From Tubulanus polymorphus (taxonomy: Eukaryota; Animalia; Nemertea): a stretch of 64,000 bases of DNA. Where the stretch lies: assembly GCF_964204645.1 (NCBI RefSeq), contig NC_134030.1, forward strand, positions 17,630,210 through 17,694,209, given 5' to 3'. The position numbers and the translations under genes are program-made. This document shows positions 33,985 to 51,974 of this stretch, piece after piece (position 1 is the stretch's first letter; the number at the start of each line of letters is the position of its first letter). The notes below the pieces were generated by a model that searched no databases, had not been told where the DNA came from, and was given only the letters and a program-made list of their open reading frames with translations.

Positions 33985-34105
33985 TCCTTGGCCTTTTTTT
34001 CGTGGCCATTTTTTCCCTTGGCCATTTTTTCCTAGGCAAATTTCCTTTGCCATTTTTTCCTTGGCCATTCTTTCCTGGTCATTTTTTCTTTGGCCATTTT
34101 TCCAA
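33985..34105. repeat. ~15-bp tandem repeat (GGCCATTTTTTCCTT)n
   Basis: About 8 degenerate copies immediately left of the Polinton-like element. Confidence 0.8.
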
Positions 34106-34262
34106 CATTCTGGGGTTTTTACCGCTAACCTTTAGCAATGCACTGTAATGAACAATTTACTTTGTTTTGCTAAATTAACTACAGTAATTAGGAAATAGCG
34201 TTTTCAGATCGGAGGTCGAGGGTCGACCACTCATCACCACAAGTAATTTTTTTTCCTAATAA

Positions 34263-37200
34263 ATGGGGGAGAATGAACACCAGCCAGAAAATAATAATGT
34301 TAATAAAAATCAATATTATTGCCAATATTGTAAGAAAATACATCGATAAATCCCAAAAATCACGACATGAAAAAACTGCAAATCATATAAAAAATGTAAT
34401 AGATTTTGAAACTCCAGAAAATTCCAATGAAAGAAAAGAACGATTAGAAAATATGAATGTGGATGAAATAAAATGTGAAGTTTGTAATGAATTTATAGTA
34501 AAAAAGAATTATAATAGACATCTCGAATCACAAAAACACCATCAAAATTTGAGTAATAATGTTTTAGGAAAAGATTATTTTGATGATAAACCTCAAAAAG
34601 TAAAAAAAAAAAAACTTCAAAAACTAAATCCATTTCAAATAAACCTTACATGGAAAATGTTAGAAATTATATTGATTCACTAGAAATAAAAGATACAATT
34701 GAAATTTTAGAAACATTACATAGTAAAATTGGTCCTGCAGCTATTATATTTAGATTAGAAGATTATAGAAGATTATAGTACATTTAATGAAATAATAGAA
34801 AAAATACTAGATTTGATAACAGATGTTGAATATCCAAAAATTAGTATCTCTGGGAAAGTAAGTTTTATAAAAGTCAGAAGAAAAAATGAATTATAATATT
34901 CAAACACACTCTGAAGAAATAATTTCATAAACACAAATAAAAGAGAAGTTAGAAAAAATATTTAATGAATTTAAACGTCATATTGAAGAAAGATATTTTG
35001 AGGGTTCTGGCTTAACATTGAATGAAATTATATATTTAGATTTAAATGTTTATGATACAAAAAGGAATAAAACATCAAAAAGTAATAAAATGTTTAAAGA
35101 TAATTCAAACTTTACAACAGAAAAGGAGGATATTAAAGGATCATCTTATATTAAATTACCATTTACAATAAAAGCAGTAATAAATGTTCAAAATGAAGAT
35201 AACAAATGTTTTCTGTGGGCAATTATAAGTTGCTTACATCCAACTAAGGAAAATGTTTGTAGAATAACAGATTATCGGAAATATGAAACATCATATAAAA
35301 TTGATCAATATCCAGTAACTATAAAAATGATTCCTAAAATAGAAAAAATTAATAATTTAAAAATAAATGTATTCGAATTAATGCAATTACCAAAGACAAA
35401 AGGTGAAAATATTAAAGATTATACATTGGAAACTTTATATTTAACAGAATATTATGATGATGAAAATGCTATAGATTTGTTATTTTACAAAAAAGATGAA
35501 AATGAACATTATATGTGGTTAAAACAAATTGATCTATTCTTTAGAACAGAAAGTGATTTTAACAGTCATAAAATTTATCTATGTAGAAAATGTTTATCTA
35601 AATTTAGAACTGAGAATGCGTTACTAAAACAAAAAGAATTATGCGATAATAAAGATTTTTGCAAATTAATAATGCCAACAGAAAAAGATTATAAACTGAA
35701 ATTTACTAATCATAAATCTAAAATTATTGTTCCATTTGTAATTTATGGGGATTTTGAATCGTTGAATAAAGAATTAACTGATCAAGATAGAAAAGAAATA
35801 TATAACAAAAAGCAATTATTAAAATCAATGGATAAAGGAAATGAATTAAATGAAGACACAACACAAGATAATTATAAATACAATTTAAAAAGTTCATCAA
35901 AGAGCTGCTGCTTATGGAATTTACATCAAATCAAATTATCCCGAATTATATGAAAGTCAATATATTTCTTTTAGAGGTGAAGATGTAGTTAATGATTTTT
36001 GTAATAAAATAATTGAATTAGAAAGTGATTTTGCAAAATTATTAAACAAAAATAAAAGAATAGTTATGACAAAAGAAGATGAAATTGATTTTAATTATGC
36101 GACTCATTGTTGTTATTGTGAAAAACGTTTATTATTCATTTGATAAAAAAGTTAGAGATCATGATCATTTAAATTCAAAATATCGTGGAGCTGCTCATGA
36201 AGATTGTAATTTACAAGCTAAAAAAGTAAATTTCGTTCCAATATCATTTCTTAATTTATCAGGCTATGATACCCATCTATTTATAAAACAATTATCGGGA
36301 AAATTGGGCGCAATTAATCAAGAAATAGAAGATTATAATGCTATGGATGGTGTAAATGTAAGAAAATATGATTTTAAACTATTAGCTAAAACATCCGAAA
36401 ATTATATTTCATTTCAATTTGGTTGCATTAGATTTTTAGATTCTTATAGATTTCTAGCAAGTTCATTAGATAATTTATCAAAAAGTTTAGTTGATAATGA
36501 TTTTATAATAACTCGACATTATTACCCAAATGAACAAGATTTTAAATTATTGAGATATAAAGGCGCAATTCCTTATTCATTTTATAAAACACATGATGAT
36601 TTTAATGTAACAGAATTATTAAAAGAACAATTTTATGATCAATTAAAAGAGGAGGATGTGAAAGACGAAGTGTTTAATAGAACATTAAATATTTGGAACC
36701 ATTTTAAGATGAAAAATCATGGTGAATTAGTTGATTTATATTTAAGATCAGATGTTATGATATTGGCTGACATATTTGAAAAATTTAGAGAAGTTAATTT
36801 GAATCATTTTAATGTTGATCCTTGTTATTGCTACTCTAGTCCTGGTTTAACCTGGCAATGTGGTTTAAAAATATACAAATGTAGAATTAGATTTATTAAA
36901 AGAACCAGACATGGTTTTATTATTTGAAAAATCAATTAGAGGTGGAATTAGTGGTGTTATGGGAGGTATTTATGGTATTTTAAAGCAAATGATGAATATA
37001 AATTATTATATATTGACACCAATAATTTATATGGTTGGGCAATGATGCAACCTCAACCATATAAAAATCTTATATTAACAGAAGTTGAAAATGATGATAA
37101 AACTGATTGGGAAAGCGCAATTATGAGTTTAAAAGATGAAGCACCAATTGGTTATTTCTTTGTAGTTGATTTAGAATATCCTGAAAATATAAAGTTTAAA

Positions 37201-39326
37201 ACAAGAAACTTACCTTATTGCCCAGAACATTTAACTGTAGATGATAGTTATTTAAGTGAATACCTGAAGAAAAAAAAACCGAAAGATCATGTTTTTACAG
37301 AAAAATTAATACTTACTCAAAATAATAAATACAATTATATCGTTCATTATAGAATGTTAAAATTTTATCTAAAACAAGGAATGAAATTAAAGAAAGTACA
37401 TAGATATATTGAATTTAATCAATCGAAGTGGTTAGAAAAATATATAGATTTCAATACTCAACAGAGAACAATATCAAAAACAGATTTTGAAAAAGATTTC
37501 TTCAAATTAATGAATAATAGTTTTTATGGTAAAACATGTGAAAATATTAGAAATAGAAATGATATTGAATTAGTAAATAATTCTGAAAGATTAAGACATT
37601 TACAATCAAGTCCTAGACATTTAGGAAATAAAAGATCTGAAGATTATTTAACAGCAGTTAAATTAAAAAGAACGTCAATGAAATTTAATAAACCTATATT
37701 CATTGGTTCAACTGTTTTAGAAGTATCAAAATTATTAATGTATGATCTTTATTATAATGTTTTACAACCACTTTTTGGGGAAACGCATATTGAAATATTA
37801 TATTTTGATTCTGTAACAGCTGACACCCCAATATCATTAAAATGTAATAATAAAATATTAATTAGAAGAATTTCAGAAATAATTCCAAAACAAAATGAAT
37901 GTTATATTTCATATGGTGAAAAAGAATTAATACAAATAAATGAATTAATGGATGTTTGGACAAGAAATGGATGGAAAAAATTAAAGAATATTATTAGGCA
38001 TAAAACAAATAAGAAAATCCATAGAGTTAGAACTAAATTAGGGTTTGTAGATGTTACAGAAGATCATAGTTTAATTAAACGAAATGGTAATGAAATAAAA
38101 CCAACTGATATAAAAATTGGAGATGAATTATTACATAAAAGATTTTTCCAAAGAATGAATCATATGTCATTTGATGAAATTGTTGATAATATTTATAATA
38201 TAAAATCCGAAACATTAGAAGAAAAAGAATATTTTATCAAAGGATTTTTCATGGGTGATGGTTCAGCAGGTGTGTATAATTATGTTTGGGGTAATAAATA
38301 TAATAGTTGGTATATATGCAATCAAGACTTAAAATTATTAGAAAGAAATTCTGTGAAGAAGTTTATTCTCATAAAACATTTAAAATCATAGATGTTATGA
38401 AATCATCAGCAGTTTATAGAATACATGTAAATAATCCTAATGATTTTGCTATAAAATGTAATGATGAATTCTATATTCATGCAATAGTGAAAAGTAATAC
38501 TTCAACAAAAGAAAAGATAGTTCCAGGTTATGTATTAAATGCAAAAAATAATTTGAGAAAGTGGTTCTTCATTGGATTCTATGCCGCAGATGGCACTAAA
38601 AAATTTACAAAGGATAAAAAGATAACCTTTGCACAGAAAGGACAAGTTGCTATATCAGGATTAAATATATTATGCAGTTCATTAGGATTTAATATGAATA
38701 TAGAATTAATTAAATCTAAACCAAATTGTTTTAATTTAAGGCATGTAGAAAAAGAATTAACAGAAGAAGTTAAAGATTTATTTGAAATATATAACCCATC
38801 AGATTATGTTTATGATTTATCAACTGAAGATGGTACATTCAACTGTGGATTTCCATTAATTGCAAAAAATACTGACAGTTACATACTAAAAATCAAGACA
38901 AATGACATAACAAAAGACTTAAAAACATTAAAACATCATTTTGATTTTAGCAATTATCCCAAAGATCATGAACTATTTAGCAATGATAATAAAAATATTC
39001 CTGGTAAATTTTAAGATGAATTAGGGGATGTTGAAATGATTGAATTTGTTGGGATAAGAAGTAAAATGTATAGTTATAGAACAAAAGATCATGAAGCTAA
39101 AAAGTTAAAAGGAATAACAAAACATGTGGTTGATAAACATATAGAATTTCAAGATTATATAAAGTGTTTATATAACTCAATTGTAATGAAACATAAAATG
39201 AATTGTTTAAGATCAGAAAATCACGAGATGTATATTAATGAAGTTGAAAAAACTAGTTTGAATCCATTTGATGATAAAAGGCATATTTTAGATGATGGTA
39301 TAAAAACATTACCTTATGGCCATTAA
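34263..39326 (+). pseudogene. Protein-primed family B DNA polymerase (pPolB) with N-terminal zinc fingers, an HNH-like insert and an intein; several frameshifts and stops
   Basis: INVQNEDNKCFLWAI; ExoI VIYGDFES; ExoII NLSGYDTHLFIK; FLDSYRFL; ExoIII YLRSDV; IRGG; motif A YIDTNNLYGWAM; motif B KLMNNSFYGKT; motif C YFD|TDS split by the intein; EFVGIRSKMY; KLKGI; FDDKR. Confidence 0.93.
37810..38870 (+). mobile_element. Full-length intein with LAGLIDADG homing endonuclease in pPolB motif C (pol-c site); one frameshift at ~38345
   Basis: N-extein YFD (37801-37809). Block A SVTADTP; block B DVTEDHSL; LAGLIDADG motifs FIKGFFMGDGS (38233) and FFIGFYAADGT (38565); block F YVYDLSTEDGTF; block G LIAKN. 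C-extein TDS (38871). Confidence 0.93.
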
Positions 39327-39601
39327 AACAGAAAATCAATATCATCATACTCGAAATCACTATTGGCTTCTTCATTTTCATTTAATTGTTCTTGTATAAT
39401 TCGTTTAGGTTCTTCCATTTCATTTTTCTCATTTAAATAACGTGTTATATTGTGCCACATTTCATCTCGCTCTCTTTGTTTCTTTTTGTTTGTTAATTCA
39501 TCAAATGGAATTATAATATCGATGTTTAAATAATTTACAATCTTATTTAAAAAGAATTCACAATTAATTGAATCTGTTATTCTATTTTCCAAATGATACA
39601 T
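39323..39601 (-). CDS. Hypothetical viral protein (acidic C-terminus)
   Basis: Intact ORF; its start overlaps the upstream stop (TAATG). Confidence 0.55.
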   Translation of the reverse strand: MYHLENRITDSINCEFFLNKIVNYLNIDIIIPFDELTNKKKQRERDEMWHNITRYLNEKNEMEEPKRIIQEQLNENEEANSDFEYDDIDFLF

Positions 39602-40371
39602 TAATATTTGTTTGAATGTTTTTTTTTAATATTTTCCATATCTTCTTCTGTTAATTTAGGTTTTTCATAATAATCGTTAAATAATAAATATAAATACATT
39701 TTCTTTTGTTTTGTGTTAAATGTTGATGGAATAATTGTTTTTATTATATCTTTTTTAGTTATTTCACCATTTTTATTTTCTATCATTTTCATTTTTTCAA
39801 GCCATTGCATATATTCTGGTGTATGATCTTCTATAGAAAATATTTTAAAAATTTCATCTAGATAATTTAATTTTGGTTCTATGAGAAAATCTCTAATTTT
39901 TTCTTCACCCCATAAATTCCTTTGCCATCCACAATCAACACAAAATATCTCAGTACCCTCTTGTCTTAAGGTCGCATAATAACATTGTGGGCATTTTTGT
40001 TTATAATTTCTTGGTAATAGATCTTCATTAAGCTCTTGGTATTTACTTACGTTTTCTATATGTTTTATTGTTCTATTATGTAGATTTGAATTACTAGCTG
40101 TAATAATCAATTTACAATATTTACAATAATATGTTTTTCTTGTTAATTCATTATATTGTTTTTCTAACTTTTCAACTGTTTCTTTATTATCTGGTAACGT
40201 TTTCTCATATTCTATTTTTTCTAATAAACTATTTTTTCTTTCATTGAATTCAGTTTCAAATTTATTTGAAATTTTATCTATATGTATTTTACGAAATTGA
40301 TGATTCTCCCAAGCTTCTATATTTTCAGGACTAAATTTCATTCGACAAGGCTCGCAGAAATGATCTTTCAT
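39601..40371 (-). CDS. Viral multi-zinc-finger protein (two C2H2 H-x5-H fingers plus a C4 ribbon)
   Basis: CEPC..H-x5-H, CKYC..H-x5-H, CPQC..CVDC. Confidence 0.7.
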   Translation of the reverse strand: MKDHFCEPCRMKFSPENIEAWENHQFRKIHIDKISNKFETEFNERKNSLLEKIEYEKTLPDNKETVEKLEKQYNELTRKTYYCKYCKLIITASNSNLHNRTIKHIENVSKYQELNEDLLPRNYKQKCPQCYYATLRQEGTEIFCVDCGWQRNLWGEEKIRDFLIEPKLNYLDEIFKIFSIEDHTPEYMQWLEKMKMIENKNGEITKKDIIKTIIPSTFNTKQKKMYLYLLFNDYYEKPKLTEEDMENIKKKHSNKY

Positions 40372-40652
40372 ATTATCCTTGTCATAGAATAAGAAAGGTC
40401 TTTTCCAAATAATTTCAGGTTCAACTTCAACAGAATTACTATTACTTTCATTACTATCAACATTAGCCGTTGCGCCATTAATTTTACACTTCTCTGAATG
40501 TTTTTAACATAATTTCTTGAGAACAATTTATTACATTTTGGGCAGTTTATTTTAGGGGGTTTATAATTTTCATCATGTTTTTTCATATGTCGAGCCATAT
40601 TACTTTTTCTTAGAAGTTCACCACAAATTTCGCATGCTATCTTCTCATCCAT
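40368..40652 (-). CDS. Viral C2H2 zinc-finger protein (probably frameshifted)
   Basis: CEICGELLRKSNMARHMKKH, then CPKC; TAAATG start. Confidence 0.7.
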   Translation of the reverse strand: MDEKIACEICGELLRKSNMARHMKKHDENYKPPKINCPKCNKLFSRNYVKNIQRSVKLMAQRLMLIVMKVIVILLKLNLKLFGKDLSYSMTRII

Positions 40653-40720
40653 TTATTAAGGAAAAATTTTATTGAAATTAATTTTTAGTGATGAGCGGTA
40701 ATTTTTTCATGTTATAAATA

Positions 40721-41497
40721 ATGGTAGAATTAAAAGAATAAGAATACAGAATATTTGTTGATTCTAGAAAACTTACAAATTATAGATCACATGATTTACT
40801 AGTTCAATTAGATAGAGAATTTAAGAATTGTGTTGATTTAAAATGAGTAAATATAAGTTTATGTAATTCTTCTTATAATATAACAGCTAAAACTTTTGAA
40901 CATAGAGACTTTTTAATTCATATTGGAGACTTTTTAATTCATATTGGAAATAAAAATAAATGGTTTCATCTATTTTTAAAACCAGGGTTATATAATTTAG
41001 AAACATTAGCCCAAGATATTAATCGGAAAGCAGGATTAAAACTTGAAAGTGAAGATAAATTTTCAATTAGATTTATAAAAAGTGATTGTTCTGATAAAAT
41101 TAAAATAAAGTTAGCCAATGAACAAAATAAATTCATGGTAAACAAGCCAATAGCTAAAATGTTAGGAATTAAACCGCGTATTGTTACTGGAAACGTAGAA
41201 GGTAGCTCAAATTAAATACCTTTTACACACTTTTATATTTATTGCAATTTAATTGACCCAACAAAAACATTTGAAGCAACTAAAGATACAATTTGTAATT
41301 CTAGTATACTAAATATTTTACCATTAAAAAATATTAAACAATTTGGAACGCAAATAAATTATAATTTAGCTGAATGAAATTTTAAACCTTGTATTCTTCA
41401 ATTTAATAATTTTAAATTAGAAATAAGAAATCATAATGGATATTTAATTGATTTGAATAACTTTCCTGTAATTTATGAATTAGTTATAGGATGTTAA
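40721..41497 (+). pseudogene. Minor capsid protein (penton, single jelly-roll)-like pseudogene; not in the ORF track
   Basis: Manual translation gives LKPGLYNLETL..FYIYCNLID..ILNILP..LEIRNHNGYLIDLNNFPVIYEL, matching Polinton penton-type motifs. Several stops and a ~22-bp tandem duplication near 40905-40950. Confidence 0.65.
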
Positions 41498-41500
41498 GAG

Positions 41501-41523
41501 TAATTTTTTTCACTATATAAATG
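41501..41523 (+). promoter_or_regulatory. Representative copy of the element-wide TAATTTTTT-N6/7-TAAATG promoter-like motif
   Basis: TAATTTTTTTCACTATATAAATG. Related copies precede starts at 34263, 40652(-), 40721, 41878, 42124, 42567, 43009, 44268, 45741 and 48966. Confidence 0.75.
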
Positions 41524-41874
41524 AATATAACTGTTGGACCGAGTATACGTTTTGGGTTTGATTTTAAACGTGAGAAAGAAATGAAATTTAACATTACTGA
41601 TGTAATTATACATATTAAAAATATTGCATTTTCTAATGAAAAAACATTAGAGTATGAAACAACAATAGATAAAGAAACTTTAAATGTAGAAAAGATTACT
41701 AATTTAATTAGACAATCTTTAAGATTTTATGAATTAGATGAAGATTTTATCATCGATGATATTAAAAAAATAATAATTGAAATATACACAAATGAAACTA
41801 GTAATGAAATAAATGTTGAAATAATTATAAATAAGATAACTAAATATTTTGAAGATAGTAATTTTTTTGATTAA
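41521..41874 (+). CDS. Hypothetical viral protein
   Basis: Intact ORF with the conserved upstream motif. Confidence 0.6.
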   Translation: MNITVGPSIRFGFDFKREKEMKFNITDVIIHIKNIAFSNEKTLEYETTIDKETLNVEKITNLIRQSLRFYELDEDFIIDDIKKIIIEIYTNETSNEINVEIIINKITKYFEDSNFFD

Positions 41875-41877
41875 TAA

Positions 41878-42099
41878 ATGAGTGATAATAAGTGGATAAT
41901 AACTGGATTATATGATGGAGCATTACTATCAGTTGGAACTGTTGGTTATTCAATGGTATTAAAAAAAGTATTTAAAATGGGAAGTATTAATGTTGATAGA
42001 TTTGATATAAATGATATCTTAAAATTAACATTAGCAGTTACTTTATCTAATTTAACTATTGATTATTTAGAAAAACAAAAATATATTCCTCCCATATAA
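41878..42099 (+). CDS. Small hydrophobic viral protein
   Basis: 73 aa, two hydrophobic segments, conserved upstream motif. Confidence 0.6.
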   Translation: MSDNKWIITGLYDGALLSVGTVGYSMVLKKVFKMGSINVDRFDINDILKLTLAVTLSNLTIDYLEKQKYIPPI

Positions 42100-42123
42100 A
42101 TGCGTAATTATTTTACTAAATAA

Positions 42124-42540
42124 ATGGCTTCTGCAGTTATAACTATTATAGGATCGGCAATTGTTAACGCTTTAGCATTTACTGGTGGTGGATATTTATT
42201 TAAGCATATTGATAAAAATGGATCATTAACAGAACAAAAAAGATATAACTTAGCAGTAGAAAAATACAATAAAGCAGCAGAAGAATATAGAGAAAAGAGG
42301 CAAAACTATATGGATTATATTAACAAGGAATTATATGATCAGAAGATTTCACATAGAGATTTTCAATCAGTTGATGATGCAATGAGTTTATATAACGCGG
42401 TAACAAATAAAGAAAAATTACATATATACAAACCTAAATTATCAGATTATTCTACCCCAATTAAAGAACAACAGAAATATGAATTATTTGGATTTTAGGC
42501 GGAACTGTTATTGTTATATTTGTAGCGTATAGATTTACTA
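42124..42540 (+). CDS. Viral protein with N-terminal hydrophobic helix and coiled coil (C-terminus frameshifted)
   Basis: MASAVITIIGSAIVNALAFTGGGYLF..; conserved upstream motif. Confidence 0.6.
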
Positions 42541-42566
42541 ATTAGTAATTTTTTTTTGCAAAATAA

Positions 42567-42992
42567 ATGGATGATAATATTGATATTATTCCTCATGATA
42601 TAAATAAAACTAAATTAAAAATGTATTTAGAAAAACAAATATTAGAATTTGAAAGTGACTTAAAGATAAAGAAGAAAAAATATTTAAAAAGTAAAATTAT
42701 ATATTATTTGATTATCAGTGGTTCAGTTACAATTAGTTCTGTAATAACATTTCTAGCAATATTCAGCCCATTAACACCTTTAGCTATATCAATTGGTGTA
42801 TTAGGATTAAGTTCAAGTGTTTTAACCGGAATAATTTCAAAATTAAATATAAAAAGTAATAAAGAAAAAATTTAAACTAATATAAAAGAAATTAATAAAT
42901 TGAAGAATACACTAGATTATATAATAAGTTTAAATGGTCATATAACAGTTGAAGAACAAGATAAATTATTAAAAGAATTAGTTAATTATTAA
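42567..42992 (+). pseudogene. Two-TM viral membrane protein (premature stop at 42873)
   Basis: Two hydrophobic helices; the frame continues past the stop to TAA at 42990. Confidence 0.55.
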
Positions 42993-43008
42993 TTTTTCTA
43001 TTATATAA

Positions 43009-44251
43009 ATGGTAGATAGTTTTCCAAAGGCTTTCCAATATAATAAATCAATTAAATATAATATTCCTGCAATAGATTTTAATAAAGATATTACATATAG
43101 AAATGAAGTTTTAGATTCATTAACTAATTTAGAAATTTATGTTACTGAAACTAAAATGAAATAAATCTAATATGAAGTATTGGCAGAACCAATTAAATTT
43201 TGCTGTTTATTGCGCTACAACAGGATGTGGAATAAGTTGGAATGATCATTTAAACAAACCAAGTTTACCATTGATGTTATCACATTTTAGATTTCATACT
43301 TATTTTCAAATAAAATTAATATTAGATGAATTAGAATGTCCTTTACCAGGTTCAAAATATTTTAAAGAATTGAATAATAATATTAATTTTTCTAAGTTTT
43401 ATAAAATATGTAATGAATTTAATATTAATTCAAATAAAGATTTTAGAGCAAAAATTGGAACAATGGGTAGATTAGGAATATTATATACTAAAGAATTTGG
43501 AAAAATAATGACAAATTCAGATATAAGAACACCAAATTGGAATGAATTACCAAAATATTATAATAATATACAACAACAAAACAATAATGGTTGGGTTAAT
43601 TTCATTTTAGAAAATAGTGAAGGTTTTACTAAAGCTGGAATACAAAGAATAAATCAATCTATTAGAACTTATTTGATATGTATTTTAGGTGCGCAAGTTG
43701 AAACAAGATCACCAATATTTGGAAATGATAACACTTCATTTGATGCGCAGAAATAATTCAAAGTATTATTTGAAGATTCAATTCATAATGATAAAAATAG
43801 ATCGATTCCAGAAAACATTTAAAGATATCAAAATTATCTAGATAAATCACATATTAGATTAAATTATTGTATAGGCCCTAATATATTAATTATTTCTAAT
43901 GATTTAGTATTAAAGATGGGAAATATAATTGGTTATAATAATCTAATTAAAACTGCAACAATAAATAATTCATTTGGATTAAATGATATAAATAAAAAGA
44001 TTATTACTGCTCCAAAATTAATGGAAGGTGAAAAAAATAAAAAACATATTCAATCAACAGAAACTAAAACTAAGAATATTAAATTAAATAATGATTCTAA
44101 ACCGGATTATAATACATCAAAAAATATTAAAACTGATAATATTCAACATGATATTAAAACTGATAATGATAATAAATTCCATGAAAATACTAAATTAGCT
44201 TTAACTTGTATAGGAATTGTTATAGGAGGAATATTATATTTTAAATTTTAA
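43009..44251 (+). pseudogene. Conserved-looking viral protein of unknown function with C-terminal TM anchor
   Basis: Fragments WQNQLNFAVYCATTGCGIS.., FRFHTYFQ, SIRTYLICILGAQ and a terminal LALTCIGIVIGGILYF. Contains stops and a frameshift. Confidence 0.6.
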
Positions 44252-44267
44252 TTTTTTTATTATACAA

Positions 44268-45724
44268 ATGGATGTAGAAGGTGGAGAAGATATTGGAATA
44301 GATAATTTTGATGAACCTGGCATAACTGATGAACAACAACCTGATTTTAGTGAAACAAGTTTTAATGACGGTAATGAGCCAGAATATAATAATAATTTAA
44401 ATATGCCTGATTATATTAAAAATGCTGAATCACAAATAGATCCTGAAAATGTAATTCCAGATTTAGTAAAACAAGATTTAGATAATTTAAACAAAATACC
44501 TAAATTAAAACGTATAATTGAAAATTCTGAATTTATTATAAATGATGAAGCCGTTGGACCTTTGGCAGATGAATTAAAATTTTTAGATAATGGTAAATGG
44601 TATTATCATTTTTAAGGTGATTATTATATTGATATCACTTATAAACGTGAAAACAAAATATTAGCAAAATCAACTTTAGAAAAATTAGAACCAGGTAGAA
44701 TTAAAAGAATTAGTAATAGTAATGTAATAACTGATGTTATAAAACAAGAATTAACTGTTAATGATATAGACGTATTTAAACAAAAAATTAATGAATTATT
44801 TGAAAAAAATCAAAAGTAAATCAGAAACGGAAACAATTCCTAAAGAAGTTAATAATTCCAAAACTAGTAAACTTAAATCAAATAAAGTTCCAATTGAAAA
44901 ACTTTTACCGAATGGATTAATTGATGCAACAGATCAACAATTAGAAGATTTAAATAATATATTTTCTGTTGAAGCAATTAGAGAAATTAAAAGTATAAGA
45001 CTTGCATCTGATAAAATTGCGCATGATAAAAGTATGAGATATTAAAATTAGAACTTTAGAAAAAGAATTAACTGATAAAAATAAAGAAATAGAACAATTA
45101 AAGTCTGATTTAGATCATCAAGTAATTGATGAAATAGAATATAGGCACAAAGAATTACGATTAGAAAAAGAAATTAATAATTTAAAAGATAATTTAGAAG
45201 TAGAGAATGAAGAAATTAAATTATTATTAAAATCATATGATTATAATATTAATAGATTAAAAGTTATTTTTAAAGATTTGTTGATAAAACCAAATTCTGA
45301 AATATCATTGAAAGATAGAATAAAATTATTATCTAACTTAGAAGGAATCACAATTCTTTCAATTCTAACAGCTGTAACTATGTTATTTACAACAATTGGT
45401 TTAGCAATATCAAATTCATTAAAATCTACACCTACTCCCAATAAACCAGATAAACCCCCGAATGATAATAGTTCTATTCCAGATAAAGTTAAAGATGGTT
45501 TAAAGAAATTAGCAAAATATTTATGGGAACTATCTAAAAAATCTGCTGCAGCTTTACCAGGAATTATTGCATCAATTGTTAGTTTTATATTGAAATCTGC
45601 AGGTAATATTCTTAACTTTGCTGCTGAACATATTATTTTATTTTGAATTACAGTTGTAAGTGCTATTATTTTTGGGTTAGTGAATATGATATCAAAAAGA
45701 TATCAAGAAAAAATAAATAATTAA
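44268..45724 (+). pseudogene. Large viral protein: acidic N-terminus, coiled coil, C-terminal hydrophobic/amphipathic helices
   Basis: ORF pieces 44268..44615, 44791..45045 and 45278..45646 form one broken frame that ends at 45724. Confidence 0.6.
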
Positions 45725-45740
45725 TTTTTTTGTTAAATAA

Positions 45741-46994
45741 ATGAGTGGGAGTTATATAAGTCCTTCTAATATTTCTAGAATATCTAATGCTATTAAAGCA
45801 GAAAGATCACATCATATAATTACTCATAATCCTTCAAATATTAATCCCGATGAAACTTTATATGTTAGAATTCCTAGATTAACAAAAAAATACTCTTTAT
45901 GTTCCAAATAGTATTTATTTATCAGCCGATATAAAAGTATCTGGTCATGATAATAATTATGTTGTCGATAATGTTGGAAGATATTTGATTAAAAAATTAA
46001 CTATAATGATTGGTCCAGAAACAGTTTTCTCATTAGATGATTATAATTTATTCATGCATTATAAAGATTTATGGTTAACTAAATGAAATAGAAATAATAT
46101 GATATTTCAAGGCATTCAATCGGAAAACCATAATAAATTAAGATCAGGAGCTAATGACGCAATAGTAACCCGTGCCGCAGATAATTTGATTAAAATGATT
46201 TATGAGAGCAAATATAAGTTCCATTAGACTTTGAATTGATAAATAATAATGTACCTTTATATAAATATGTAATTCAAGAAGATATGATATTTGAGATAAC
46301 ATTTGCTCCTGCAAATGCAATTGTATTATCTAGCGTTGTTAAAGATATGAGTTATAAATTATCGAATATATGTTTAGAATATGACACAGTAACTAATGAA
46401 AATATTGCTAGCACAATTCAAACTCAATACAATCAAGGATTTTCATTACTATATGATTATATTGATAAATTTAAAACTGTAACTATTAATGCAAATGATG
46501 AAATAATTAATGAGAATATTAACTTCCCAAGAAGATCTATTAAAGGTATATTAATATTTTTTACCATTGCAACATATTCTAATGGCGCAATAAAGGTAGA
46601 TAATTATTATAATCCTGAAATAGCAAAAGTAGAAATAACAATTGAAGGCATAGCAAATAAAATATTTTGTCAAGGAATGAGAATGATAGATCAATGGCCA
46701 GAAATTAGAAAACATTTTATGAATGAAAAAGTAAAATCATCTGAAAATTGTAATATTAATCAAATTGATTATTATGCCGGTAATAAATATGCATTATGGT
46801 TAGATTTTAGAACAACAGAGGATAATTCATTACATGGTTCTGGAAAAAAACTACAGAACACTAAAGATGGAATACAATTATTCATGAAAAAGAAAAAAAG
46901 AAAAGGAAGCTTAAATTTTAAATTGCACATTTATATTATATCTGACGCACAATTAAATATTGTAAATTCACAATTAGATAGTATTCAATATTAG
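45741..46994 (+). pseudogene. Major capsid protein (double jelly-roll)-like, disrupted
   Basis: ~415-codon beta-rich frame (ITHNPSNINPDETLYVRIPRL..YKLSNICLEYDTV..YALWLDFRT..LHGSG). Size and position fit a Polinton MCP; the fold cannot be verified without a profile search. Confidence 0.65.
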
Positions 46995-47024
46995 AAATAT
47001 AAAGTTAAAATTAACGATATATAA

Positions 47025-48152
47025 ATGTGTGGTACAAAAACTCCTAATACTAAAGAACAATATTTAAGAACTTTATATTACAACCCTGAGAGTTCGGTTG
47101 CTTATTCTTCAACCAAAAATATATGGCGTCAAGTAAAACAAGATAAATTAGATAAGATAATCCCACAAAATGTAGTTAAATATAAAGATATAAATGAATT
47201 TATGTTAGAACAACCAACATATACTACACATAAAAAAATTGTTAGAAAATATAAAACTCGTAAAACTATGGTAAGTTATGTAGATCAACAGTTGCAAGGA
47301 GATTTAATTGATATGAAAAATGTTAAGAAAGATAATGATGATTATTGGTGTGATATTGAATATAATTGATATTTTTAGTCGTTATGTATGGAGCTTCCCA
47401 CTTTATAGAAAAGATGCTGCACAAATGTTTTAAGAAAATTTCTTTCGGATGATAAACTAAAACCAGAAAAAATACAATTTGATGATGGAAAAGAATTTGA
47501 TAATTCACTTGTTCATGAACTCTTAGAAAATCATAATATTAAATATTTTTCAACAAAATCGGATAAAAAAGCAGCAGTTGTTGAACGATTTAATAGAACA
47601 TTAAGAACAAGAATGTGGAAATATTTTACAGCAAATAATACTTTTAAATGGATTGATGTTTTACCAAAATTGATAGAAGGATATAATAATTCTTATCATT
47701 CTTCTATTGGAATGAAACCTATTGATGCTAGAAAACCTGAAAATGCTGAAATTGTTTGGAATAAATTATATGGAGCATTTCTTGTAGATGATTTTGGTGA
47801 ACCTAAATTTAAAGTTGGTCAAAATGTTAGAATTTCTAGGTATAGAAAGATATTTGATAAAGGATACGATCGAAATTTTACTGGAGAAATATATAAAATA
47901 AAAAAGGTAATAACAACAAAACCATATGTCTATAAATTAGAAGATTTAGATGGTGAAGAAATTGATGGCTACTTTTATGAAGAAGAATTGAGTTTAAGTA
48001 CTGAAAATCTAGAACAAGAATATAAAATTGAAAAAGTATTAAAAACAAAAACTATTAAAAGAAAAAAATATTCTTTAGTAAAATGGGTTGGATGGCCAGA
48101 TAAATTCAATGAATGGATAATATCAAGTAAAATTAAAAAAATATATAAATGA
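47025..48152 (+). pseudogene. Retroviral-like (rve) integrase with C-terminal chromodomain
   Basis: YYNPES..; QGDLIDM; FDDGKEF; KAAVVERFNRTLR; YNNSYHSSIGMKP; KFKVGQNVRI; chromodomain EYKIEKVL..VKWVGWPDKFNEWI. Frameshifts near 47350-47460. Confidence 0.92.
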
Positions 48153-48757
48153 ATAAGGAATTATTTATATTTGAGACTCATAATATGTTCATTTCTGGCG
48201 TAACAAATTGTGGAAAAACTTATTTTATATTAAATTTATTAGAAACTGTTTATAAAAACTATTTTGATAATATAGTATTATTTTGTCCAATATATGAATT
48301 TAATCAAACTTATGATAGAAATATTACTAGAAATAATAAATTTATTATATTAGATCCTAAAACAGTAAAAGAAAATTTAGATAATTGTATTAAAATAGCA
48401 ATAGATATTTATAAAGGATCAAATACATTATTCATTATAGATGATTGCGCAAATTTACATGATTCAAAAGTGAGAGAAAGTGAGTTATGTTATCTGACTT
48501 TCTCTGGGAGACATTTTGGGATAACAACATGGGTTTTAAATCAAAAATATAATTCAATTGTTAAAGACTTTAGAGAAAACATTAGATTTCTAGTTTTATT
48601 CTACAATAAAGATAAAAAATTGATGAAAAATGCACTTGAGGAAAATGATATTATTCCACATGATTAACATAATGAATATATGGATAAATTGAAAAATATT
48701 AAAAGATCAAAATTACTATTTAGATTACAACACCCATTTAAATATGAATTTATTTAA
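48149..48757 (+). pseudogene. A32/FtsK-like DNA packaging ATPase (premature stop at 48665)
   Basis: Walker A SGVTNCGKT, Walker B FIIDD, SGRHFGIT and the downstream NQ motif. Confidence 0.88.
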
Positions 48758-48965
48758 ATTCAACAGGTTTGTTAATCTATTACATATTTAGTTACATTCT
48801 AGTTGAATTCTAGTTATTAGTAGTTGGAACAAAAATCAAATAAAATTCAACAAGAAATAAACAAAAACAACAATATTTCAACTAGCTTGTTAATCTAGTT
48901 GAATTCTAGTTACATTCTAGTTGAATTCTAGTTGCAACAACACAACTAATTTGTTTGTTATATAA

Positions 48966-49556
48966 ATGGTGGGTGAAAAGAAAATAAAATCTAAAAATGG
49001 TGATGTTCCAATTGAAAAAACATTAGATGATTTAGGAATAACAGAAACAAAATTAATTCCAGATGATGGTGCTTTAAATAATGTTACAACAAATAATAAT
49101 TATGAATATTATCTTTATTGTAAACATCAATTAGAAATATTAATAGCATCTGGAAAATGTAAAAATTTTATCGGTAAAAATTTAACTTATAAAGAATTAG
49201 ATACAATGAAATCACATGAAATTATTAGATTATTTAAGATTTATGAAACCGCGAGAACAGCTAGAATTAATGACGCGATATCAGAAAATGTAGTTAAAGG
49301 TTATAGTAAATTATGTAATTATATGCTGCCAATTCAAGATGAAAATAGATTATATGCTGATTTAAAAAATGATTATTTAGTTATGACCGAATTAAATAAA
49401 TGGATTGGATATTTATCATTTCAATTAGGTGGATTTATGACATTATTATCAACTGGAGCTACAACATTTTCAAATATTGAAAGTAAAAATATTTCTGTAA
49501 TAAATGAACAAGGTGGAAGAAGTGAAGAAAAAACCGAGATCACAGAAACAAATTGA
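48966..49556 (+). CDS. Hypothetical viral protein
   Basis: Intact 196-aa ORF with the conserved upstream motif. Confidence 0.6.
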   Translation: MVGEKKIKSKNGDVPIEKTLDDLGITETKLIPDDGALNNVTTNNNYEYYLYCKHQLEILIASGKCKNFIGKNLTYKELDTMKSHEIIRLFKIYETARTARINDAISENVVKGYSKLCNYMLPIQDENRLYADLKNDYLVMTELNKWIGYLSFQLGGFMTLLSTGATTFSNIESKNISVINEQGGRSEEKTEITETN

Positions 49557-49866
49557 ATGGTCTCGGCAATTAGGAATTAAATCACAAGAATATAAAAAAG
49601 CTGTAAAAGAAAAAATAAGTAATAAAAATGTTAATAAAAATGGTGAAAATATTGTTATTTCTACTCCTTCTAATGATAGAATATTTGATAAATGTCTATA
49701 TTTTACAGTTGGATTTGTAATTGTATTCATTTTGATTGGGTGTAATTGGTATAAGAAATCAAATAAAATTCATGATATTAATAATTCTGAAACAACTGCT
49801 ATTAAAAATGAAAATACTTCTGAAATTCCAAAATTGATAATAAAAAAAAATGGATTAATTTTTTAG
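49504..49866 (+). CDS. Basic viral protein with one TM segment
   Basis: KKKPRSQKQIEWSRQLG.. plus hydrophobic LYFTVGFVIVFILIG; TAAATG start. Confidence 0.55.
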   Translation: MNKVEEVKKKPRSQKQIEWSRQLGIKSQEYKKAVKEKISNKNVNKNGENIVISTPSNDRIFDKCLYFTVGFVIVFILIGCNWYKKSNKIHDINNSETTAIKNENTSEIPKLIIKKNGLIF

Positions 49867-51974
49867 AAAAAATTTGGCATGTTTTCGCTTGTATTGCAAA
49901 ATTAAGTCCAAAATAACTGGAATCGTTTTAAAAGGATTTCTGTGAAAATTTTCAATTTTTCCCCACACGTCAACAAGTGCCTTTCGAATCAAGATAGATT
50001 CCTCATGCGCAAAAACCATTGTAGCAATTTTTTTAGTTTTATTTGTCTATGGTTTGATACGTCAAGATTTCAGTAAAAAGGGCAACATCGTCGTTTATGT
50101 TAGCGAAGCTTGGTATACAAGCAAGCTGACAATAACAAGCCACTGAATTTTATCGGGTTAGGCTTTGTATAGCTCATTATCTATAGAAAGTCAGTGATTA
50201 AGTCCTAAGTAAATATTGCTCAATAAAAGAGAGTTCATTAGTCGATGAACAATGTACAAGCGACGACAGGCCTATGAGGCACCCGTAAATCAAAAATGTA
50301 TTTCACGGATTTCGCGATGCGATAAATTATTGAAACTTTTAATTTGAAATATCTTTGAAATACTATTTGAAATTTGAAATATTATTTTACCAGGGCGATA
50401 ACTTTTAGTATTAGTTTAGTAATAATGAAGTATTTCAATCTTTGGATAAACGTCGGAAAAATTGGGAAAATTGCCGCTAGATAAATATTAGAATTTGCAA
50501 GTTTTGTAATAACTTTGAATTGTTTAATTTTACTGGACATTGGTGTATACTGGATATCATGAATCACGAAACATATATCTCATACAAACGTTGATTGTCT
50601 TTTTCATCTTCCTTCATTTCCATAACAATCAATCGATTTTTAAGTCGATTTAATTACCAGGATAGCGACTAAATGCGTTTGTGCGTTTAATCAATTAGTT
50701 TCCGAATCCGTGGTATGTCAATCAAAAAATAATTTTTTAAGTCGAGAAAAAGTAAGATGCATTCTATCAGCTAATTTCATTGTAAAGACTATAATGCTTC
50801 GTATATGAATCAATACTAAAGCATTAATACCGCAGGCCACTTAATCTTGAGCTTGATTGTGAGAGGTGTTTAAACACAATGGTCACATGAGTAATTAAAT
50901 GGTTGTGTCATAAAGGGAGTATTCTGCCTAACCCATATCATCCCGATATCTGGAGTTCTGGGCTTAGTAACGCATGTTTAGAATGAATTTTATCCGATTA
51001 TTTTTATAACATAATTTTTTCTCTCTGCAAATTCCTGACGTTTTCTGGGTGCTAACGCTCAGTGGCTAGTACGCTGGATTGTATTTTCCCTTATTTCATA
51101 GATCTACATGCGTACAAACTTGAACTGAACTGAATGGGAACTGAGTTCGATTAGGAGTTAAAACCTCCTTATTAACTCCTATTTCTGAATTGTATATAAA
51201 GGAGTGAAGAAAGAAACAAACCCTCATACCGAATACACTTTTACGTATAAATGCGAATAATGCATACTAGGACAATAGCTAATTCGCGACCTTAAATGAA
51301 AGAAATACGACTCGAATATTTTTATCATACGTGACACGCGAATCTCCTATTAACGCTAGTAATGAGAGAAGAATCCACATGAATGAAATGTATCAGCTTC
51401 ATGATCTTTAATCCTTGAATGACGATTCTTAATTAACACACAACACTTAATATAAATGAATTGTATCGATTACTATAGAAATTCCATTTTAAGAATGCAT
51501 TTATCAAATAACGTCCATTGACTCTGAAAATGAACCTTAAAACCCGTAAATTAGCTAAACTCGTGCCAAATTAAGCTATTTAGATTTATTCCAGCTGTCT
51601 CGTGAAAATTTGTAAGCAGTCCTTATATATTCCCTGTTTAATCAAAACTTAATTTCTATGTTATTCACGTGTTTTAATTACGATTTCCCCTCGTTTATCG
51701 AGAAGCGCCTGATTACAATCTGATTACAATTGATTGTCAACAAAGTTACAGCAATTCACTGTTAGGTAAAGAAAATACTAAATCTATTTAGTTTTCTAAA
51801 ATTGTATGTATGTCTCATACCGTCTCATTACCACGAACACTGTGTATCGTATCACTCGAAATTCATAAATCTACCTCGCTTTATTGGGTACTGTTTAAAA
51901 AATGAAACACAAATTAAACCCAAAACAATAAATACCTATCTTTCTAAAAATTCAGGTTATAGCTTTCAGTAGTG

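Follow-up and report, generated by a model that had tools for sequence, protein, structure and literature searches.

We analyzed a 64,000-nucleotide stretch of the genome of the nemertean Tubulanus polymorphus (NC_134030.1, positions 17,630,210 to 17,694,209; here called the window, with position 1 its first letter). It contains a decayed Polinton-like element at 34263..49866 (no strand assigned), which the original prediction had described as a dead virophage-like Polinton from a tripartite system of animal host, large DNA virus, and Polinton. The limits of the element follow a step in GC content, near-synteny with the metagenome contig L003, and a drop in read depth. GC content was 0.22 to 0.27 in all 16 of the 1-kb bins covering 34,001 to 50,000 and 0.29 to 0.48 in the other 48 bins, and read depth dropped in the bin at 49,748 to 50,124, the right edge of the element. 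L003 is an almost wholly intact relative, with 72 to 82% nucleotide identity to the element. A search of the element for terminal inverted repeats found none, and a target-site duplication was likewise not found; the ends of the element are probably truncated.

The element comprises 14 genes, encoding a DNA polymerase B of the protein-primed type (pPolB), a minus-strand zinc-finger protein, a likely penton, a major capsid protein (MCP), an integrase, an A32-like ATPase, and eight small or membrane proteins. Stops or frame changes interrupt 9 of the 13 genes that could be aligned to intact homologues, and the minus-strand gene is spread over three frames. The copy is dead, as predicted. Read mapping across 40,700 to 52,000 detected many copies, most of them 90 to 99% alike, over 40,700 to 49,750 (four runs from one organism, representing three samples and two studies). 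We concluded that the element belongs to a multicopy family, whose copy number is not readable because the flank also looks repetitive. For the mapped region (runs X1 to X5), three contig sets gave element-to-flank depth ratios of 85, 19, and 16, and the raw reads gave 3.0; this may be an artifact of the assembly graph, and we do not take differences in depth between runs as a sign of replication.

Three of the core genes have predicted roles in replication, integration, and packaging. The pPolB gene (34263..39326, + strand; PF03175, E 4e-8) is broken by stops and frame changes and is 60 to 79% identical across its main blocks to the homologues P0002, P0003, and P0006. The integrase gene (47025..48152, + strand), also broken, encodes an rve integrase with a chromodomain (rve, E 1.5e-10 in the intact orthologue), and the A32-like packaging ATPase gene (48149..48757, + strand; PF04665, E 9e-13) has one internal stop. 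The combination of pPolB and rve integrase is that of the Maverick/Polinton groups (Polintoviricetes groups 1 and 2).

The MCP gene (45741..46994, + strand) is broken and is 68 to 79% identical to intact relatives. An AlphaFold2 model of its closest intact homologue, P0121, is a double jelly roll (pLDDT, 86). In Foldseek, its best matches were the MCPs of an iridovirus (E 6e-16) and of PBCV-1, and the MCPs of mavirus and Sputnik were poorer matches (~10% identity) than those from nucleocytoplasmic large DNA viruses (NCLDVs). The MCP family is large: a threshold of E ≤0.001 gives 3,270 representatives, and one of E ≤1e-30 gives 367. PF21738, our proxy for the Maverick-type MCP, had no match at E ≤0.01 in the MCPs of L003, P0204, and P0179, and it was found at 1e-41 to 1e-56 in the control Mavericks L023, L024, and L027; the A1 profile reached control MCPs only at E ≥0.004. 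The MCP had no relatives among the viral_contigs and no match in a PDB sequence search, and its motifs were not found in the supplements of PMC11296320 and PMC7805220. An adenovirus-like cysteine protease, present in most of Maverick/Polinton group 1, gave no tblastn match in the window or in the relatives L001 to L008 (incomplete contigs), and the best profile match in the element had an E value of 0.028; the same search detected a protease in 15 control contigs. PLA2 had no match in the protein sets of the element or of its intact relatives. The gene at 40721..41497 (+ strand; three internal stops; 41% identity to L003:565) likely encodes a penton, a minor capsid protein. Its Atlas look-alikes are viral (DUF5901 cluster; TM score, 0.74), and a single-sequence model reached a pLDDT of only 39 and gave no confirmation. 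Thus, of the predicted set of capsid, penton, ATPase, and integrase, all were found except that the penton is only likely.

The original prediction had called for comparison of the ATPase with the Polinton groups. In a quick tree built without reference sequences, the element ATPase grouped with those of L001, L003, and L004 in a clade with a support of 100; its branch is long and lies apart from the PF21738 group. Like Maverick/Polinton groups 1 and 2 (Polintoviricetes, adintoviruses), the element has pPolB, a chromodomain rve integrase, an A32 ATPase, an MCP, and a likely penton and is endogenous and multicopy. It differs from them in an MCP without a PF21738 match, no protease, no PLA2 match, TAAATG starts, and an intein. 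Virophaviricetes are marked by a virophage-type MCP and a maturation protease, and we found neither in the element. We therefore file it neither as a classical Maverick nor as a virophage. A preprint from 2026 describes animal Polinton-like viruses (PLVs) outside the Maverick groups, whose ATPases, from Octocorallia, Hydrozoa, and Bivalvia, lie near Aquintoviruses and which, in the parts drawn on here, share with the element a non-Maverick capsid module (10.64898/2026.06.19.733378); the element may belong to these. The only eukaryote-named homologues are a bivalve MCP (39%; labelled Mactra antiquata) and a coral pPolB (42 to 43%). Other homologues (P0128, P0010, P0235, and L006 to L008) carry bacterial or archaeal labels (Bartonella, Sulfurimonas, Thiodiazotropha, and metagenome-assembled genomes [MAGs]) and lie on short contigs; these are probably eukaryote-derived contamination.

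The start motif and its controls

Poxvirus-like late promoters were among the predicted features of the element. TAA stood directly 5′ of the ATG at 12 of the 14 gene starts in the window, and the remaining two starts differed by one base. The window starts were picked partly by orthology, and those of pPolB and the integrase partly by the motif itself. The unbiased count comes from the relatives, in which we took the first ATG of every open reading frame (ORF) of ≥100 amino acids. TAA-ATG was present at 30 of 32 first ATGs in L001 to L005 (27 of 29 without L002, which is a near-duplicate of L001), against a background of 77 of all 978 ATGs (7.9%) in the same contigs. As controls, we used 25 other pPolB-bearing Polinton and PLV contigs, in which 11 of 240 starts had the motif. 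L031 (GC content, 0.22) had the motif at 1 of 10 starts but L030 (GC content, 0.38) had it at 6 of 6. Hence, the motif is not an A+T effect.

L030 is a 9-kb viral contig with a protease-type Maverick in which the protease is fused to the integrase. Its pPolB is only 29% identical, its ATPase lies far from the element clade, and it is probably a second origin of the motif. Four other Polintons (L023, L024, L027, and L007) show T-A(4-6)-ATG starts, perhaps a related initiator series.

On the + strand of the window, ATAAATG occurred 22 times, compared with 8.9 ± 3.0 in 100 dinucleotide shuffles (maximum, 17). Bare TAAATG occurred 33 times, compared with 21.4 ± 4.5 (maximum, 35), so that its count alone is unexceptional. 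The signal is positional, at gene starts. An A/T-only core lies at −18 to −12 upstream of starts. Among 29 motif-bearing starts, which were selected for the motif and are partly orthologous, positions −18 to −14 and −12 were free of G and C, and position +4 was A or G throughout. Motif starts have T at −3, whereas the controls are dominated by a purine at that position. An example of the bipartite motif (T-rich core, spacer, and ATAAATG) precedes the MCP gene at 45722..45743 (+ strand). Poxvirus late promoters consist of a T-containing core, a spacer of 5 to 7 bp, and TAAAT(G/A) overlapping the start site (PMC5294985). By sequence pattern, the element starts fit this layout, with TAAAT(G/A) at the start codon, and we infer that the T-rich core and TAAAT together form a promoter. 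The predicted motif is real and bipartite, is kept in intact relatives, and is not explained by A+T content.

We considered whether the motif could instead act in translation, either by coupling of stop and start codons or as a start context shaped by A+T content, with the element an ordinary nuclear Maverick. There is little space between genes, a stop passes directly into a start at one L003 junction, and A-rich starts occur in many controls. However, that single L003 junction is the only one in which the TAA of the motif is the stop of the upstream gene, and the motif also precedes first genes, divergent genes, and genes that follow gaps of 16 to 325 nucleotides (nt). In L001, two divergent genes have ATGs 19 nt apart, and both have the motif. 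The presence of the motif before divergent genes and its near-independence from upstream stops argue against translational coupling. The conserved G/C-free upstream core and the lack of the motif in the A+T-matched L031 also speak against a role in translation, and the MCP and gene set differ from those of classical Mavericks. We regard this explanation as improbable.

In the literature covered (titles and abstracts, with subscription journals and bioRxiv supplements outside its scope), we found no work on a poxvirus late promoter in animal Polintons. Nor did we find a paper describing a TAAAT-type promoter or a pPolB intein in Polintons, a search that took in the intein passages of part of this literature. 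The words "promoter" and "intein" do not occur in Barth et al. 2024 (PMC11296320), 10.64898/2026.06.19.733378, Stephens 2024 (PMC11131425), or Jeong 2023. In sum, the element is a Polinton-like virus that combines a late-promoter signature of the large-virus type with a probable gene for a VLTF3-like factor and a PolB intein that is mobile.

The VLTF3-like gene and the polymerase intein

The broken gene at 39323..40652 (− strand), which has C2H2 and U1 zinc fingers, probably encodes a VLTF3-like late transcription factor, with the VLTF3-like domain at its C terminus. The original prediction had overlooked this gene. Read through with X at the break and compared with the six-frame ORFs of all 181 loci, it matched a true giant-virus VLTF3 best (E 0.012). 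The alignment covers both sides of the break, and its score of 92 exceeds the maximum of 78 in 2,000 shuffles. BLASTP with the short 3′ piece and a PDB sequence search with the VLTF3-like piece gave no match. VLTF3 was not found in the three MAGs behind L006 to L008, which are fragmentary, or in the 125 of 234 control ORFs that were scanned. A VLTF3 homologue has already been reported in stony-coral polintoviruses, and the sections of that report drawn on here describe no link to a promoter (PMC11131425). TBP, TFIIB, and RNA polymerase families had no match in 18 ORFs scanned or in the protein sets of the window and intact relatives, and no RNA polymerase gene was found in L001 to L005.

The pPolB gene is interrupted at 37810..38870 (+ strand) by an intein with a LAGLIDADG homing endonuclease, which has one frame change and lies between YxD and TDS of the YxDTDS motif. 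Its termini are an N-terminal Ser and a C-terminal Asn, followed by Thr at +1. Pieces of the intein matched PF14890 (E 0.003) and PF14528 (E 0.03), and these matches were stronger in the intact P0001 and P0004. The insertion site is that of the mimivirus PolB intein (between YGD and TDS), and the two share termini and 37% identity. The element intein differs from giant-virus PolB inteins in residing in a protein-primed polymerase of an endogenous element, and pPolB inteins form a clade or clades of their own. In a quick tree, seven pPolB inteins fell in one clade (SH support, 100) and two fell elsewhere. The element intein is 62% identical to that of P0001 and 41 to 48% identical to five other pPolB inteins, and its identity to inteins of RNA-primed PolBs is at best 40%. 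The top match among the latter is a giant-virus gene; 10 of the 12 loci found with that gene are labelled GVMAG.

The intein is patchily distributed. The three closest pPolBs lack it. On the extein tree, its presence required 7 changes for 8 rows and was unclustered, with 160 of 500 shuffles giving a value as low (P0259 may be a truncated carrier). Judged by sequence, the intein is of the NCLDV type, and its acquisition was old, with subsequent spread among Polintons. It would have come long ago from the pool of giant-virus PolB inteins and likely homes among Polintons now. The prediction of an NCLDV-type intein was correct in that the intein is real and related to those of giant viruses (~40%); as independent evidence for a helper it does not serve, since its nearest relatives are pPolB inteins (41 to 62%) and it is patchy on the tree.

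We made two further observations on such inteins. The P0004 cluster (136 members) contains near-identical pPolBs on contigs of 57 kb to 1.0 Mb. Of the 15 listed, 7 have the intein, and at least two full-length pPolBs in the cluster lack it, a pattern that suggests homing within the Polinton family of one eukaryote. The P0273 intein is 47% identical to that of the window and occupies the same site in a very different pPolB, on a long branch; a jump between polymerase families is possible.

A possible large-virus helper and its alternatives

Nearly all genes, including those of intact relatives, start at a motif of the poxvirus late type. Hence, a large DNA virus is the likely source of the transcription machinery that the element family used. 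The reading that we favor, at a probability of roughly 55%, is that of a virophage-like element transcribed by a helper. A large DNA virus infecting the same cell would supply the RNA polymerase that transcribes the genes of the element in the cytoplasm, in the manner of virophages, which use the late promoter of their helper. Transcription would start within the run of A residues, leaving no templated 5′ leader, and the transcripts would receive a nontemplated poly(A) leader, as in poxviruses, where slippage at late starts makes 5′ poly(A) leaders (PMC6211774). The VLTF3-like protein may join the late initiation complex of the helper or compete in it. Replication of the linear genome would fall to pPolB and its packaging to the ATPase, and the integrase would store it in host chromosomes, where it would be silent until a helper infects.

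Mavirus, Sputnik, and the PLV Gezel-14T resemble the element in being, as described, small double-jelly-roll viruses without an RNA polymerase, whose genes have promoters of a large-virus type. Mavirus also has pPolB and rve. The element differs from these three in its TAAAT-type promoter, its probably animal host, the lack of a protease, and a probable VLTF3-like gene of its own; its dependence on a helper is proposed. For the PLVs associated with entomopoxviruses (Barth et al. 2024, PMC11296320), as for the element, hyperparasitism on a cytoplasmic large virus has been proposed in animals. According to the parts of that paper drawn on here, they were found together with their helper, unlike the element.

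Because the VLTF3-like gene, the polymerase, and the integrase all start at the motif, no gene has an obviously different "early" start. This bears on a rival explanation, in which the element belongs to an autonomous nuclear virus whose own VLTF3-like factor brings host RNA polymerase II to the motif, producing an early-to-late switch without a helper. The probable VLTF3-like gene itself opens this alternative. VLTF3 is found in coral Polintons (PMC11131425) and in small viruses such as Mriyaviruses, and several of the starts contain TATAAA. VLTF3 also occurs in nuclear large viruses without an RNA polymerase of their own. Given these occurrences in small viruses and nuclear large viruses, the gene is compatible with host polymerase II. 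It thus points in two directions, as a link between the element and large-virus late transcription and as a factor that could act for host polymerase II. Against the rival, the VLTF3-like gene and the polymerase stand behind the same motif, so that nothing visible would prime the cascade, which favors an outside trigger. Moreover, by established TATA spacing, a TATA box abutting the ATG puts the polymerase II start inside the ORF, and 5′ leaders could not be accommodated in the 19-nt gap between the divergent genes of L001. We consider an autonomous nuclear virus unlikely, though it is the strongest of the alternatives.

A polymerase could also come from a companion cytoplasmic linear element like yeast pGKL rather than from a giant virus. 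Promoters of pGKL combine a TAAAN initiator with slippage of the polymerase (PMC6211774), and such plasmids derive from Polintons (PMC11071308). No such companion was seen here, and, as noted, L001 to L005 contain no RNA polymerase gene. We know of no pGKL-like element in animals, and we view a companion of this kind as improbable. Still less probable is that the host retains the family as an inducible defense against the helper virus. By analogy with mavirus, a multicopy family could serve in this way, and one membrane gene is weakly SLATT-like, a class proposed in a preprint for abortive defense; the window copy is dead, however, and the SLATT matches lie below the cutoff.

A blind scan with the clade promoter pattern returned 50 loci, of which 5 belong to one uncultured giant virus and the other 45 were unenriched. 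In that virus, the motif was present at 8 of 9 starts in the scan loci, one of which the scan itself had selected, and at 14 of 20 starts in 20 kb. Among the genes seen, there is no sign that it is a poxvirus, and nothing links it to the host. As the same start motif (14 of 20) is in use in this virus, a helper other than a poxvirus would also fit. The virus is represented by L131, L144, L150, L151, L153, and L177 to L181; one contig is labelled GVMAG-M-3300002367-2, others reach 263 kb, and the motif occurs on both strands. A PDB sequence search with a gene of L181 gave no match. An earlier promoter-pattern scan returned at least 80 loci; among the matches listed, a single locus matched at half or more of its starts (2 of 3).

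Several observations weigh against a helper-transcribed element. The blind scan gave no helper candidate from this host; the start motif and the VLTF3-like gene are what tie the proposed tripartite system to large-virus late transcription. The match of the 3′ piece of the minus-strand gene to Pox_VLTF3 (PF04947; E 7e-5) scored 23.1 bits, below the cutoff of 25. Distant elements with the same capsid (L006 to L008) had TAA-ATG at 0 of 10 starts, and many control Polintons have T-A(4-6)-ATG starts; the exact motif could therefore represent one lineage's version of a start context general to Polintons. In 12 large-virus contigs with the nearest inteins, 31 of 184 starts had TAA-ATG. The intein moves among Polintons, and the promoter is mostly absent from the viruses whose inteins are nearest; hence, the intein is no evidence as to the helper of the element. 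In corals, expression of Polinton genes was seen for about half of 49 elements, which form a different group, and the sections of that paper drawn on here mention no helper (PMC11131425). The likeness to entomopoxvirus-associated PLVs in the original prediction is one of lifestyle and not of kinship, since those PLVs, as described in the parts of the paper drawn on here, have an adenovirus-type protease and no rve, whereas the element has rve and no protease (PMC11296320). Other predicted signals were confirmed and do not discriminate. The step in A+T content is real and is uninformative about a helper. The lack of introns and of an RNA polymerase is likewise true, and Polintons in general are intronless and without an RNA polymerase.

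Two further candidate signals were set aside. Depletion of the poxvirus early terminator TTTTTNT (8 versus 22) was rejected as generic avoidance of homopolymers, also seen in controls. A test for AATAAA depletion was nondiscriminating (142 versus 140.5 in the clade, and no clear depletion in controls).

A fuller scenario, which we put forward only tentatively, is that of an animal provirophage lineage. Its members would stay silent until a cytoplasmic giant virus of invertebrates infects, whereupon the late polymerase of that virus and their own VLTF3-like factor would take over late transcription. The same wiring would have arisen separately in L030, and an intein derived from giant viruses would home among chromosomal Polinton copies. 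No virion has been seen for Maverick-Polintons, according to the parts of a preprint drawn on here (10.64898/2026.06.19.733378). From sequence alone, Polintons can be divided by the promoter signature into classes open to testing, and the signature predicts both poly(A) leaders at 5′ ends and a large DNA virus of invertebrates that is yet to be discovered. If true, the segregation of a homing intein among endogenous copies would be unusual for animal chromosomes.

Remaining genes and flanking DNA

The remaining genes of the element lie on the + strand and mostly encode small or membrane proteins. Several membrane proteins had been predicted, and in the intact relative L003, 5 of the 14 proteins have hydrophobic segments. 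Two small open genes of unassigned function (117 and 73 amino acids; 41521..42099) have orthologues in L003. Next to them, at 42124..42992, are two genes, both broken, for small predicted membrane proteins, with hydrophobic segments in the L003 orthologues. The second of these is weakly SLATT-like (SLATT_fungal, E 0.014 and 0.0013, below the cutoff). A broken, conserved core gene of unassigned function lies at 43009..44251; it is 80% identical to its counterpart in L003, which encodes 442 amino acids with a C-terminal hydrophobic segment, and it has counterparts also in the distant L006 and L007. The 442-amino-acid protein had no match in Pfam, NCBIfam, or Atlas. The gene at 44268..45724 is broken and encodes a coiled-coil protein with three hydrophobic segments (485 amino acids in L003). 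Two open genes (196 and 120 amino acids) lie at 48966..49866, and the product of the second has one hydrophobic segment.

Noncoding short repeats of family D14 occupy 48759..48933 (no strand assigned) and have a 76% inverted match to the same gene gap in L003. They are short and palindromic, and their position is kept in L003; they are possibly an origin or packaging signal.

Some genes of the relatives are additional. L003:10340-10981 encodes a deoxynucleoside kinase (E 2e-31) that is absent from the window, and a search with it gave one contig only, which is unrelated. L001:5568-6083 is a free-standing HNH-like gene inserted behind the bidirectional motif pair spaced by 19 nt.

The flanks of the element are a transposon-rich eukaryotic region. 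They contain fragments of a LINE reverse transcriptase (28,372), a Harbinger-type DDE transposase (17,610), HTH_psq (12,277), a PIF1-like helicase (25,670), and DUF7869 (62,781). Taken with the bivalve and coral homologues, these fragments would by themselves suggest an invertebrate animal as the host. A broken RecQ-like helicase gene lies in the right flank at 52,771 to 54,193 (Helicase_C, E 1e-19).

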